Source: a virus (Duplodnaviria; Caudoviricetes). Taken from it: a DNA stretch of 64,000 bases. Shown here piece after piece: positions 59,333 through 64,000 of this stretch. The stretch's first letter is position 1; each line of letters starts with the position of its first letter. Location of the stretch: IMG/VR virus record IMGVR_UViG_3300017766_003232, positions 24,922-88,921 of that record; one strand, written 5' to 3'. Below the pieces are notes generated by a model that worked only from the letters and a program-made list of their open reading frames with translations, made no database searches and was not told the DNA's origin. The translations under genes and the position numbers were made by a program.

Positions 59333-62300
59333 ATGCCTGATAATATTAAACCAAGTGCACTTAGTAAACAGCTATCGCAAATTACAAATGCTAAAACACA
59401 AGCAATTAAAGAAGGGAAAATTCCAGACGAACAAGCAGTATCTAAAAAACTTAAAGAAGATGAAAATGCTTATATTGGACACGATATAGAACATCCTTTT
59501 AAACTTGCATCGGAATTTGAAAACTTTGAAGATTACATGCCTAGCAATACTGTTAGAGGTGGAAACTTTACGTTAGATCAATTAGTTGCTCAACGTGCTG
59601 AAAACGCAGGGTTTTTAACAGAAACAGGAAAAGCATTTGGTCAATTAGCAGTAAATATTGTTCCTCAAATAATTGGAGGTGTAGCATCTATGTTAGATGT
59701 ACCTGGTTATTTTTCTGCTGAAGAAGCTGCTAATAATGATATTGTTAGATGGGCAGATAGCGTAAAAAAATGGTCTAAAGAAGAAATGCCACTTTATTTA
59801 GAAAACCCAAATAAACCAATGGACTTTGGTGATTATTCTTGGTGGTTAGATAGAGGAGAAGGTTTAGTTGAATCAGTTGGTTCATTTGTTGCTCAAGGTG
59901 CAATGTTAGGTGGAGCATTAAAATATGTATCAGGTGCAGCTAAATTAGCAAAAACAGCTTCTGGAGCTGCTAAAATAGCAAGAGCAGGAGAAATTGCAAA
60001 AACAGGTTTAACATCAGTAATGTTAAATCAATCTGAAGCTGTTATTGAAGCAACAGGTGTTTACGATCAAACAAAAGCATATTGGTTAGATAAAGGATAT
60101 TCTATTGATGAAGCTAAGAAAAAAGCTGCAATTGCTGCTTCAACAACAATGAATATAAATCGTGCAAATATTTTATTGAATTTAACTTCTGCACATGGAT
60201 TTTTAACACCATCAAAATTAACTCGTCAATTATTAACTGCTCCAACAAAACTTGGAACAATAGGTAAATTAATAGGTGAGGGTGCACAAGAAGCATTGGA
60301 AGAAGGAATTAACCATATTGGTTCTCAAGCAGGTTTAGCAGCAGGAAAAGGTGAATCTTATTCCTACAACAAAGCAATGAAAGATTTAGGTTCTGCTGAA
60401 GGACTTGAAGCTATGTTGCTTGGTGCTGTTGGTGGTATTGCTCAAACAGGAGGAGGACATGTTTTAGATAGTATTAAAATTGGTCCAAAATCAGTTGTTG
60501 ATGAAAATGGAAATAGAATATCAGCAAATGAAGATCTTAAAAATCGTTACCAAAAACAACAAGAACAAATTGAAGAAATGAAAAAAACTGGAGTAAAATT
60601 CAGTTCATTATTTGATAACATTCAAAAAGTTCAAGACATTACAGAGAAAAATAAAGATGCTGCAGAAAGAGGTAACAATGAAGAGATTGATAAAAACAAT
60701 CACGATTTATTTTTAAATGGTGCATACAAATCTTTTCAAACAGGTACTGCTGAAATTTACGAACAAACAATTAAAGATTCTGCTGAACAATTAGGATTAG
60801 ATGCAGAAACTACTCAAAATGCAATTGCTCATTTCAAAGAATTAGAACATATCTATAATAATGTTGAAGGATATGCAAATAAAGAAAATATATTTACAGC
60901 AACTGCTGAAAATTTATTTTACAAAAAGCAATATGAAAAACAAAATATAATTCATACAAATAATCAAACTAAATTATCTAACGAAATAAATAGAATTTCT
61001 AATAGATTTAAGTTTAAAAAAGAATCAGATATTTTATTTAAAAAAGAAGGACAAGTAGTTGGAAGTGAAAAAGTTACAAAAGAAGTTCCTATTACATATG
61101 ATTCTAGCAACCTTGAAGAAAATACAGGTGATACAGAAGAAAATAAAAATATATATAATGATTTTTTAAATGAAGTTAAGAAAACTGAAGCATGGGAAAA
61201 ATATCAAAATTCAAAAGAAGAATTAGAAAAAGCAGATAATTTTCTTACTGTAAACAATGATGGATTAAGTCATTTAAAGTCAAAAGAAGGACAAGAAGAA
61301 GCATTAAAAAAATCTGCTGAACAAAAAAGAAATAAAGAAATATTAGATAGAGTAAATGCAAAAGATGCAACTATTTCTGAGTTAGAAAAGATTAAAAATG
61401 AAGTAACTAATCCAATTGTAAAAGCAACATTAGAAGCAAAATTAAAAACTTTAAAAGAACAAAAAGCTACTGAAGAACTAACAAAAAAACATGATATTAT
61501 TTCTAAAGATTTACAAGATAAAATTGTAAAATCTGATTTAAAAAATATTGATAGTATTGAAAAAAATATTGAACAATCAAATCTTCCTCAACAAAGAAAG
61601 AATGAATTGTTTGATATGTTAAATATTAAAAAAGAAGAATTAAAAAATAATATAGGTAGTAATAACTCTGCTCTATCAGGTAGTTCAATTACATCAGGTC
61701 AAAAAAAATCTGTAAAACTATCAGATGCAGAAGTAAATGCTAAGATACCAACTAATTATGTTCCTGTAAACAAAAATAATATTATTGAAGAAGTTGAAAA
61801 TGTACTTAGTGATTTGTTAAAAAGAAGAAGTCCAGGATCAAGAGATGCAAAAGGTAATGTTATTTGGGATTATAATAAAACAGATGTTGGACACAATAAA
61901 GCTGCTCATCTTTCAAGAAATTTTGTACAAGTAGATAGCACAGGTCATGTAACTCGTGAAGAAATAGAAAATTCAATAAATGAGAAAGGTAAACATTTGC
62001 TTAGAAGCAATGTAGCAACTCCTGGAACAAAGATTGTATTTAAAGTAGAACATAACTATGATGGTGATGTATATTCTACTGAATCAACTACCAAAGAAAA
62101 AAAGAAATGGAGTGATAGAAAGAATGAAATAAAAAATGATTCAACAAAATATAATGCTGAAGTTCCAATTGCTGCTTATACAGAAGATGGTCAATTTTTA
62201 TTTTATATTCATGAATTAAATTGGATCAATAATGAAAACGTAGATAATTCTTCAGAAGAATTAGAATTTGACAGATTAAAAATGATGAGTATTAGAAATA

Positions 62301-64000
62301 AAATTGTCAATTCTGAAAAAGAAGGAAAACAAATTACTACTACGATTCAAAATAAATCAACAGGTATATTGTTTAAAACAAAAGATAACAAAACTATTTC
62401 TTTAGATGAAGCAATGCCTGATGAAAACTTAATTATTCATGTAGGTGATAAAGATGGTACAATTAAAGGATATGAAGGAAATAAGAAAATAATTAACCCA
62501 GATAATAAAGTTTCTGGAGCAACTTATGCACTTGTTCCAATTGGAGAAAATTTAGCAGCAATTAGGTTAGAACAAACTAAAGTAACACAAGAAATTACAA
62601 ATACAATTTTTCGTGCTGTAGAATGCTATTTAGATCCTAATTCTGATGAGAATGCTAAGTTAATTGAAGAAATAGCAAATACAGGTTATGATATTTCTGA
62701 CATCAAAGGTTTATCTGCTTTTATAAATAATTTTATTTATTTAATTCCAACAGAAACAAACTTAAAAGATTTAGTATCTGATGCTACAACTGAATGGAAT
62801 TCTAAAAATCATTTAGTTTCGGTTACTGGAAATTCTATTGAATTTGGTAGACCAGGTATTACACCTGATGGAAAAAATTCTGTAATTTCTATTTTCAAAG
62901 GTTCTAAAACAAATAGACAAAATTTAGAAAAATTTAAAAAACATTTAGAAGGATGTCTTGTACATTTTAAAAATGAAGCATATTCATCAGGTGCAGATGT
63001 TGCAATTGTTAATGCAGATGGTTCAGTTACTACAAGTCCTTATAAATCGTTTGTAAAAGGTCATTTTAAAACAAATGTATTATCTGCTAATGTAGGTACA
63101 GAAAGTAAGCCAGAATGGACATATACAATCCAACCTTCAATTACTTATGATACAACTTTTGTTCCAGTAGAAAATAATGAAAGTAGTAATGTTTCTAATA
63201 TAGAAAAAGCTAAAAAAGCTGAAATAGAGAGAATAAATAAAGAATATCAGGATGCTATCGAAGAGTATCGCAGAACTAAAGATTCTATCTTACTATCACA
63301 AGGCTTTAATCCTAAGAATAAAAAACAGGCTCAAGCTCATAAGGAAGCTTTTCAACGATCTCGTGAAAAATGGGAGAAAATAGACGCTGAATATTATGCA
63401 AAACTAGACGCTTTAGAAGCTTCTTTTTCTGACATAGAAGCTAAGAAAGCTGATTTAGAAAGACTACTTCTTACACCTTCAAGTTTACAATCTAGTACTA
63501 CTGATAAAGATGTTTTAAGTAATAGAGCTACTGGTAAAAAATATGTGGATGGTGCAATTAAAGCTGGTAAGTCAGATTTAATTATAAAATTAATCAATAT
63601 AGCAGCAAGCGGTAGAAGTGCTGCAACAATTGCTAAAGAAACAGGTTTTAGTGAAGCTGCTGTAAGATTAATAAGGGAATATTTAGGGATACCATCAGCA
63701 GGTAGTTTTGGTATAGCTGGTACTCAGACTGAAGTTGAGCAAGAAGACTTGGATAGATTTAATACTTGGAAAAAAAGTATTAATGATATTAATGCAAAAC
63801 TAGCTGCTTTAGAAGGTATTGTTTCTAATAAGAAAGCTGATATAGAAAAAAGAAGACAAGAAGACTTACAAAATGGTGAGTTATTTTTAATGAATGATGG
63901 TACTTATGGAGGTAGTAGAAATGTCTCATTAAACTTTTATTCTGATGTACAAATAAAGGAAGGAAATCCTGAAGGAGATATTAGAACATGGGATTATAAA
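59333..64000 (+). CDS. giant virion cargo/ejection protein (>1550 aa, truncated by window; locus where crAss-like phages encode the virion RNA polymerase complex)
   Basis: ATG at 59333; frame open at every point I translated through to 64000; Gly/Ala-rich N-terminal segment with EGAQEALEEG motif; RNAP catalytic motif not seen within the window. Confidence 0.8.
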   Translation, partial: MPDNIKPSALSKQLSQITNAKTQAIKEGKIPDEQAVSKKLKEDENAYIGHDIEHPFKLASEFENFEDYMPSNTVRGGNFTLDQLVAQRAENAGFLTETGKAFGQLAVNIVPQIIGGVASMLDVPGYFSAEEAANNDIVRWADSVKKWSKEEMPLYLENPNKPMDFGDYSWWLDRGEGLVESVGSFVAQGAMLGGALKYVSGAAKLAKTASGAAKIARAGEIAKTGLTSVMLNQSEAVIEATGVYDQTKAYWLDKGYSIDEAKKKAAIAASTTMNINRANILLNLTSAHGFLTPSKLTRQLLTAPTKLGTIGKLIGEGAQEALEEGINHIGSQAGLAAGKGESYSYNKAMKDLGSAEGLEAMLLGAVGGIAQTGGGHVLDSIKIGPKSVVDENGNRISANEDLKNRYQKQQEQIEEMKKTGVKFSSLFDNIQKVQDITEKNKDAAERGNNEEIDKNNHDLFLNGAYKSFQTGTAEIYEQTIKDSAEQLGLDAETTQNAIAHFKELEHIYNNVEGYANKENIFTATAENLFYKKQYEKQNIIHTNNQTKLSNEINRISNRFKFKKESDILFKKEGQVVGSEKVTKEVPITYDSSNLEENTGDTEENKNIYNDFLNEVKKTEAWEKYQNSKEELEKADNFLTVNNDGLSHLKSKEGQEEALKKSAEQKRNKEILDRVNAKDATISELEKIKNEVTNPIVKATLEAKLKTLKEQKATEELTKKHDIISKDLQDKIVKSDLKNIDSIEKNIEQSNLPQQRKNELFDMLNIKKEELKNNIGSNNSALSGSSITSGQKKSVKLSDAEVNAKIPTNYVPVNKNNIIEEVENVLSDLLKRRSPGSRDAKGNVIWDYNKTDVGHNKAAHLSRNFVQVDSTGHVTREEIENSINEKGKHLLRSNVATPGTKIVFKVEHNYDGDVYSTESTTKEKKKWSDRKNEIKNDSTKYNAEVPIAAYTEDGQFLFYIHELNWINNENVDNSSEELEFDRLKMMSIRNKIVNSEKEGKQITTTIQNKSTGILFKTKDNKTISLDEAMPDENLIIHVGDKDGTIKGYEGNKKIINPDNKVSGATYALVPIGENLAAIRLEQTKVTQEITNTIFRAVECYLDPNSDENAKLIEEIANTGYDISDIKGLSAFINNFIYLIPTETNLKDLVSDATTEWNSKNHLVSVTGNSIEFGRPGITPDGKNSVISIFKGSKTNRQNLEKFKKHLEGCLVHFKNEAYSSGADVAIVNADGSVTTSPYKSFVKGHFKTNVLSANVGTESKPEWTYTIQPSITYDTTFVPVENNESSNVSNIEKAKKAEIERINKEYQDAIEEYRRTKDSILLSQGFNPKNKKQAQAHKEAFQRSREKWEKIDAEYYAKLDALEASFSDIEAKKADLERLLLTPSSLQSSTTDKDVLSNRATGKKYVDGAIKAGKSDLIIKLINIAASGRSAATIAKETGFSEAAVRLIREYLGIPSAGSFGIAGTQTEVEQEDLDRFNTWKKSINDINAKLAALEGIVSNKKADIEKRRQEDLQNGELFLMNDGTYGGSRNVSLNFYSDVQIKEGNPEGDIRTWDYK
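63191..63870 (+). repeat. in-frame cassette boundary repeats (AKLxALE ... KKAxIER)
   Basis: GCAAAACTAGACGCTTTAGAAG (63398-63419) vs GCAAAACTAGCTGCTTTAGAAG (63794-63815); KKA(E/D)(I/L)E at 63212, 63443 and 63830. Confidence 0.8.

Follow-up and report, generated by a model that had tools for sequence, protein, structure and literature searches.

How can one reading frame of a giant phage protein hold a row of domains that are unrelated to each other and that are all framed by similar short sequences? This question is raised by the end of an IMG/VR virus contig (record IMGVR_UViG_3300017766_003232; 88,921 bp, 28% GC), the last 64 kb of which (64,000 nucleotides, in the following called the window) were analyzed. 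The window ends within a giant open reading frame (ORF), P0001, and the stretch of this ORF from 63191 to 64000 consists of three in-frame units, each of which has an N-helix and a C-helix motif around its interior. These short helix motifs at the edges of each cassette are called brackets, with the N-motif at the start and the C-motif at the end. We consider it probable (about 0.7) that P0001 encodes part of a polyvalent virion protein and that homologous recombination in the DNA of the brackets leads to an in-frame exchange of its cassettes.

Brackets and interiors in the window and in related proteins

A preliminary description of this DNA had proposed that the giant protein contains in-frame cassettes that can be exchanged and the boundaries of which are conserved in the DNA. 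The translation and the DNA repeats on which it was based were found again at the respective positions, and the repeats are far above chance. The 22-mer GCAAAACTAGNNGCTTTAGAAG is present at 63398-63419 and at 63794-63815 (two copies versus 0.02 expected; 0 of 100 shuffles reached two), the 19-mer AAGAAAGCTGATWTAGAAA at 63443-63461 and at 63830-63848 (two copies versus 0.01 expected), and GTTTCTAATA at 63191 and 63821. Equally, the three interiors were found to have no similarity among themselves, as had been stated, and the remark that the first interior uses rare codons was borne out by counting. The codons CGC, GGC, CAG, ATC, and GAG make up 8 of the 52 codons of the cassette 1 interior versus 11 of the 1286 codons of the conserved N-terminal part (binomial P 1.5e-8), and the GC content at third codon positions (GC3) is 0.23 versus 0.09 in the upstream part. 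Cassette 1 is compositionally foreign, and the composition of the other cassettes is ordinary.

A search of 5.8 billion proteins yielded giant relatives of 2.7-4.5 thousand residues, and 95 further matches were obtained from 1.84 billion cluster representatives. The alignments with orthologues mostly end at P0001 residue ~1287, which is exactly the first boundary. The family consensus of the N-motif is IEAKKADIERRRQEEL, which is read from the relatives as (S/T)DIEAKKADIERRRQEEL, and that of the C-motif is INAKYDAELAALE. The C-bracket of cassette 2 corresponds to INAKYDAELAALE minus YDAE, i.e. to a clean deletion of 12 nt, and has retained the consensus codons CTA GCT GCT TTA GAA. When hidden Markov models of the brackets were used, a check that had been suggested in the preliminary description, alternating N..C units were found in about 40 of 115 related proteins. 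In the relatives, each unit is flanked by flexible linkers, and in many of them the linkers after the C-brackets are rich in proline and threonine. The interiors have lengths of 12-270 residues, and the smallest units, with 44-56 residues, consist of two helices and a loop and little else. Taking all gathered sequences together, 106 units were present in 95 proteins, and the 93 interiors of at least 40 amino acids fell into 68 sequence families. In 61 bracketed units from other phages, Pfam recognized neither the brackets nor the interiors and revealed no common family.

The degenerate back-translation of KYDAELAALE matched 94 IMG/VR contigs and only seven contigs in 596 Gb of prokaryotic genomes. 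Two of the seven were chance matches in high-GC bacteria, and the other five were low-GC contigs of metagenome-assembled genomes that contain giant ORFs. These five contigs (L099-L103) had been assigned to Nitrososphaeraceae, Bacteroidia, Cloacimonadota, Pontiellaceae, and Sphingobacteriaceae, thus to archaea or bacteria, and are probably phage contigs that were mis-binned. Among GenBank phages, no match was obtained by tblastn of the region, by megablast of the 39-nt bracket consensus, or by tblastn of P0084, and a scan for related loci with the window's own peptides found none.

Codon fixation and homology breakpoints at the brackets

For the quantification of codon usage, contigs with alignable flanks were removed, which left 60 dereplicated contigs, and the expected values were calculated from each ORF's own codon usage. 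An identical 30-mer encoding the C-motif was present in 21 of the 60 contigs, and another 10 differed from it solely by CTA/TTA. In the C-motif, Leu6 was encoded by CTA in 34 of 60 cases (7.0 expected; P 7e-17), Ala4 by GCA in 51 cases (19.4 expected), and Ala7 and Ala8 by GCT in 54 and 53 cases, respectively (35.1 expected for each). In the N-motif, the isoleucine was encoded by ATA in 38 of 40 cases (16.7 expected). The P values should be taken as indicative only, as the contigs are not independent of each other. At identical residues, the C-motif had a codon identity of 0.78 and the N-motif one of 0.875, versus about 0.51-0.56 expected. As a control, other amino-acid 6-mers that are common to the same ORFs were analyzed, and their codon identity was 0.577 versus 0.512 expected. 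The contrast with this control is a stronger argument for codon fixation than the P values. In the phage studied here, CTA accounts for 6% of the leucine codons, yet it is used in three of the four C-brackets.

The ends of homology blocks were located in the fetched loci, and 41% of the 151 ends were found at most 15 nt from a bracket, compared with 2.7% for random positions. When only those ends were counted after which homology did not resume within 600 nt, 30 were at brackets and 9 elsewhere. The presumed end points of recombination are concentrated at short conserved in-frame motifs, as in the T-even adhesin type of exchange. The common part of the loci L030 and L044 is exactly one unit from N-bracket to C-bracket (489 nt, 94.5% DNA identity) with no similarity in the flanks. 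Several other pairs likewise have exactly one such unit in common, and whole units are found in different loci at 84-94% DNA identity, again without the flanks.

The cassettes of the window are distributed in the same way. Cassette 3 is 89% identical to a part of P0003, an otherwise unrelated protein of 4463 residues, and 54-64% identical to parts of P0022, P0084, and P0085, which are otherwise unrelated to the giant ORF (the comparisons with P0003, P0021, and P0060 were made at the protein level only). Further copies are present in P0101, P0103, P0112, and L106-L110, and the DNA homology to L106 and L107 starts at window positions 63828-63829, at the first bases of the N-bracket. Five further contigs contain cassette 3 with different neighbors on either side. 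Cassette 2 recurs with 48-54% identity in the otherwise unrelated P0060, and there it is also located between brackets. In addition, the ORF with which the contig starts has a 350-aa module (residues 201-550) with about 80% identity to P0021, versus 25-45% in the flanks, and the left edge of this block is at a C-bracket. Together, the positions of the homology-block ends support the earlier proposal of recombination-driven exchange of in-frame cassettes. The comparison of orthologues, which had been named as a check, revealed that the cassette content differs and that the breakpoints are at brackets, and it did not support a collinear tandem duplication.

Continuation of the gene, its neighborhood and predicted structures

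The expectation that the array continues beyond the window proved right. The contig starts with a 5'-open ORF (G000:C1:1-5433, 1811 residues), which contains two further bracket copies, i.e. KYDAELAAIE followed by EDIEKRRQ, and later KYDAKLVALG. In the copies of cassette 3 in P0003, P0101, P0084, P0085, L106, and L107, a stretch that aligns with the final 61 residues of the window ORF is followed by 51 more residues and then by a stretch that aligns with residues 1-36 of the contig-start ORF. Because these homologues bridge both ORFs with 51 residues, the two ORFs very probably represent one gene of a circular or circularly permuted genome, of which about 153 nt are missing. The order of the array is cassette 1 (80 aa), cassette 2 (129 aa), cassette 3 (about 148 aa), cassette 4 (157 aa), and a module of 350 aa. 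At least five modules with about 860 residues thus precede the virion RNA polymerase half, which is encoded by the end of the contig-start ORF and in which the conserved region after the array ends. For the C-terminal region of the gene, the identity to P0021 and P0025 is 42-49%. In 14 orthologues with both anchors, the span from anchor to anchor is 377-1288 residues, and it is about 1119 residues in this phage, which therefore has one of the longest arrays. The assembly break (window 64000 / G000:C1:1) falls within cassette 3 of the giant gene. It could stem from cassette heterogeneity in the population, and the record, which is listed as 'linear, 68% complete', may represent a nearly complete circular or permuted genome. 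The features of the window are summarized in the table.

Table. Features of the giant ORF P0001 and its cassette region (window coordinates)
Feature	Position	Strand	Description
Giant ORF P0001	59333..64000	+	1555 aa, 3'-open, interrupted by the contig end
Conserved N-terminal region, residues 1-1286	59333..63190	+	30-40% identity to other crAss-like giant proteins
Cassette 1 N-bracket	63191..63232	+	VSNIEKAKKAEIER, degenerate copy of the family N-motif
Cassette 1 interior	63233..63388	+	predicted helical hairpin, atypical codons, GC3 0.23
Cassette 1 C-bracket	63389..63418	+	EYYAKLDALE, rare Leu codon CTA
Linker ASFS, four residues	63419..63430	+	
Cassette 2 N-bracket	63431..63466	+	DIEAKKADLERL
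Cassette 2 interior	63467..63784	+	four-helix domain, helix-turn-helix-like
Cassette 2 C-bracket	63785..63814	+	DINAKLAALE
Linker GIVSN, five residues	63815..63829	+	
Cassette 3 N-bracket	63830..63868	+	KKADIEKRRQEDL, near-consensus at the DNA level
Cassette 3 interior, first part	63869..64000	+	alpha/beta domain; remainder at the contig start past a gap of ~51 residues

Directly 5' of the giant ORF are genes for the crassvirus tail ring protein (PF24228), the muzzle (PF25731, E 4e-142, and PF25729), and cargo protein 1 (PF25725). Because of these genes, the contig is assigned to a crAss-like phage and the P0001 ORF to the giant virion protein block. The gene order of the Crassvirales, i.e. 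muzzle, cargo, and giant proteins bearing an RNA polymerase, was found in this contig. Synteny after the muzzle and cargo genes, together with the fusion to the virion RNA polymerase part, suggests that the giant protein is packaged in the virion and ejected into the host. A ferritin-like gene (PF00210, E 1.4e-13; L003 5436-5909) is located between the contig-start ORF and the next giant protein. The latter (L003 5920-11535) has 1872 aa, a DFDVD polymerase motif, an HExxH motif at residue 1146, and a C-terminal helicase of the PIF1/RecD type (SF1), and Pfam reported no peptidase family for it. On the minus strand of the window, the ORF at 925-1494 matches AAA_24 (PF13479, a Sak4-type RecA-like ATPase) with an E-value of 1.1e-8, which is over the family cut-off, and its product is a candidate phage recombinase of the annealing type. 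RecT and ERF were not found in the contig. ARAGORN detected no tRNA gene within window 1-64000.

The structures of the cassettes were predicted with AlphaFold. The model of window 63170-63892, which was based on a single sequence, has a mean predicted local distance difference test (pLDDT) score of 70 and consists of helices only. Cassette 1 was modeled as two long helices with a short loop, and cassette 2 as four short helices between a short N-helix and a long C-helix; this C-helix extends through the five-residue linker into the next N-bracket. For cassette 3, the P0084 copy and an alignment of seven sequences were used, which resulted in a pLDDT of about 80 and in an N-helix, six strands, short helices, and a C-helix. 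All brackets are predicted helices, and both bracket helices of cassette 3 were modeled with a pLDDT of about 80. We infer that the N- and C-bracket helices pack together, because the minimal units hold little else, the flexible linkers are outside of the brackets, and both helices are confidently modeled. The preliminary description had imagined payloads on coiled-coil stalks. The helical nature of the brackets and the two-helix hairpin of cassette 1 agree with this idea, and the pairing of the two bracket helices would be its conjectural part.

The same description had suggested anti-defense payloads, and searches of Pfam, PHROGs, the PDB, the ESM Atlas, and fold libraries attributed no function to the cassettes of the window. 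With the giant protein and with each cassette, Pfam and PHROGs gave only sub-threshold matches (OmpH, dnstrm_HI1420, NADAR), and sequence searches of the PDB gave nothing meaningful. The ESM Atlas contained no usable match for cassettes 2 and 4. Fold searches with the window model retrieved only generic long-helix matches (best E 0.076), and the best Z of 4.6 for the cassette 3 model was under the informative level. Cassette 2 has a weak match to an antitoxin-type helix-turn-helix family (E 0.08). In the 350-aa module at the contig start, a NADAR-like region (L003 1111-1650) gave a sub-threshold Pfam match (E 2.4e-4; 21.8 bits versus a cut-off of 35.1) and also matched PHROG 1017, the function of which is unknown (E 5.7e-6). 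Apart from this NADAR match, which lies outside the window, nothing pointed to a conflict-type enzyme. Among proteins of similar length, neither cassette 2 nor the NADAR-like part had a free-standing homologue, and no homologue was found for the interior of cassette 1.

A model of cassette exchange, its rivals and known systems

In the mechanism that we propose, a conserved N-terminal region of about 1290 residues, encoded after the cargo genes, would be followed by the cassette array and then by the virion RNA polymerase part. Each cassette would be a small, independently folding domain between an N-terminal and a C-terminal helix. Because the bracket DNA (about 40-50 nt each) is conserved even at synonymous positions, it would provide patches of near-identity in a fixed frame across otherwise unrelated genes. 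Homologous recombination in these patches, either between co-infecting phages or between copies within one gene, could swap, add, or delete whole cassettes. A crossover within a bracket would keep both the frame and the fold, and an unequal crossover would alter the number of cassettes, and the outcome might be the at least five modules of this phage versus none to two in most relatives.

Several points weigh against this mechanism. The pathway is presumptive, and no recombination event was directly observed. The 60 contigs are phylogenetically non-independent, by which the binomial P values overstate the certainty, and the codon fixation could be a by-product of a recent spread of cassettes and not the cause of their exchange. 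Compared with the consensus, the brackets of the window are degenerate; one has an insertion of one residue, and another one lacks four residues. Most relatives have a single unit, such that the term "array" fits this phage and not the family. The closure of the contig across the gap would follow from homologues, and the argument for the pairing of the bracket helices is indirect. No payload has a demonstrated function, and an anti-defense role is plausible by analogy with polyvalent proteins.

Four other explanations were weighed against the same data. The brackets might mainly be processing or recognition sites of a polyprotein, the domains of which would be freed after packaging or ejection by a putative zincin-type peptidase of the same gene block, and exchange would then be secondary. 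This explanation is compatible with recombination in the brackets, and as the principal role of the brackets we regard it as unlikely. It is in line with the literature, in which fused crAss giants have been proposed to be 'likely cleaved' by the gp65 zincin or by MPTase domains of polyvalent proteins, with the HExxH motif in the 1872-aa protein encoded two genes downstream, and with the flexible Pro/Thr-rich linkers after the C-brackets of many relatives. However, the residue after ...AAL is variable (E, G, K, Q, T, N) and the next residues vary freely, the bracket is a helix of 13-17 residues, which exceeds the usual length of a cleavage site, and AlphaFold builds both bracket helices into cassette 3. 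Recognition by a protease would also not explain the fixed synonymous codons. These could instead be a signal at the RNA or translation level that marks domain boundaries, either a structured element or a rare-codon pause that aids folding, and the rare leucine codon CTA (6%) at each domain end would suit such a pause. Nevertheless, this is improbable in our estimation: three junctions fold no better than shuffles (z -0.71, -0.95, and +0.52), a pause does not account for the position-specific choice between GCA and GCT, which are both common, or between ATA and ATT, and the homology blocks end at the brackets.

Integron-like insertion of cassettes at the boundary sequences by site-specific recombination, which the preliminary description had considered, shares with the locus only the general picture of unrelated cassettes in an array with conserved junctions, and we judge it very improbable. 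A tyrosine recombinase (PF00589) is absent from the 88.9-kb contig, which may lack about 150 nt or more, and the control genomes all gave matches. An attC-like inverted repeat was not found, as the sole junction repeat has 20 nt and 75% complementarity, and the folds of the junctions, calculated for RNA and not for single-stranded DNA, are not above those of shuffles. Moreover, the junctions are coding helices in frame, and the cassettes are segments of one ORF and not separate promoterless genes. The integron was rejected on its defining features, i.e. tyrosine recombinase, attC hairpins, and separate cassette genes. The chances of a tandem duplication of one domain with subsequent divergence of the interiors are just as slim. 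The brackets are indeed tandemly repeated, and unequal crossing-over could have spread them through the gene. However, the interiors are dissimilar and are predicted to fold differently, cassette 1 as a helical hairpin, cassette 2 as a helix-turn-helix-like bundle, and cassette 3 as an alpha/beta domain. Moreover, interiors recur in unrelated proteins with identities of 48-89%, and cassette 1 is foreign in composition. Tandem duplication was rejected because the interiors are unrelated and independently distributed.

Homologous recombination within the brackets thus is the explanation that we prefer, and it can be extended. Tentatively, the codon-fixed brackets could be an in-frame 'assembly standard' of crAss-like phages, in which the DNA is kept as a recombination joint, the helix pair insulates the inserts, and an order-wide pool of dozens of injected effector domains is traded between phages that have no other sequence in common; we hold this wider proposal to be somewhat less likely than its opposite. 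If it is true, new phage-delivered effectors could be searched for by means of the brackets, which would also provide a natural design rule for cargo in crAss-like virions. The phage proteins that arrive in the cell together with the DNA are the first to act in an infection, and those of crAss-like phages are almost wholly uncharacterized. Because the bracket pair marks the starts and ends of domains, it is a simple sequence key for harvesting them, and a small sample already yielded the 68 interior families. The codon-fixed joints also offer a case in which the long-standing 'conserved linker' concept of modular phage evolution can be tested, with whole domains as the units that move within a reading frame. 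Should the joints function in the proposed way, they would open a route to put chosen domains into the ejected proteins of crAss-like phages, which are mostly uncultured.

Polyvalent proteins, fused crAss polymerase polyproteins, and recombination at conserved in-frame motifs are already known. The bracket strings were absent from the searchable literature, and no published description was found of the bracket pair, its codon fixation, or the exchange of domains at brackets. Polyvalent proteins of phages and conjugative elements combine 2-15 unrelated domains in one polypeptide (Iyer, Burroughs, Anand, de Souza, Aravind 2017, PMC5512222). Like them, the protein described here is giant, has many unrelated domains (at least five modules, the N-terminal region, and the RNA polymerase part in one frame), and has a domain set that varies between relatives (PMC5512222). 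Polyvalent proteins are also considered to reach the host with the DNA and are associated with a zincin-type peptidase (MPTase) domain; the protein described here would likewise be packaged and delivered, and the HExxH motif of the neighboring 1872-aa protein may be a counterpart of the peptidase. Unlike them, its domains match none of the families tested, and no conserved bracket or linker motif and no conservation at the codon level are described for polyvalent proteins (PMC5512222, in which the word 'linker' occurs 0 times); recombinational variability is raised there only as a possibility and for one kinase system.

Fused virion RNA polymerase polyproteins have been described for crAss-like phages, with the gp65-gp67 block of phi14:2 as the example (Drobysheva et al., bioRxiv 10.1101/2020.03.07.982082). 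The likenesses to this block comprise the same gene block and phage order, large proteins that are packaged in the virion (here presumably), a DFDxD-type RNA polymerase motif in the neighboring gene (here DFDVD), and one huge fusion in some phages. In contrast, the architectures in this literature are fixed and maybe cleaved, and they do not include a hot spot for the exchange of bracketed cassettes that would lie between the N-terminal region and the polymerase. In the T-even adhesins gp37/gp38, shuffling occurs via glycine-rich motifs and His boxes (Trojet et al. 2011, PMC3157838, citing Tetart et al. 1996, 1998), and short conserved in-frame motifs between hypervariable segments are common to both systems. 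In the adhesins, loops of one receptor-binding domain are swapped among close relatives and the motifs form the core of the domain, whereas in the giant proteins entire domains with no relation to each other are moved between genes that are otherwise dissimilar, and the protein that receives them is internal and probably ejected. In polymorphic toxins, a single C-terminal tip is replaced from silent downstream cassettes and is paired with immunity genes. Unlike that tip, the cassettes described here are internal, bracketed on both sides, and arrayed, and they have no immunity genes. The two systems are alike in that polymorphic toxins have a conserved pre-toxin junction, which allows diverse domains to be joined to a delivery scaffold by recombination (Zhang et al. 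2012, PMC3482391).

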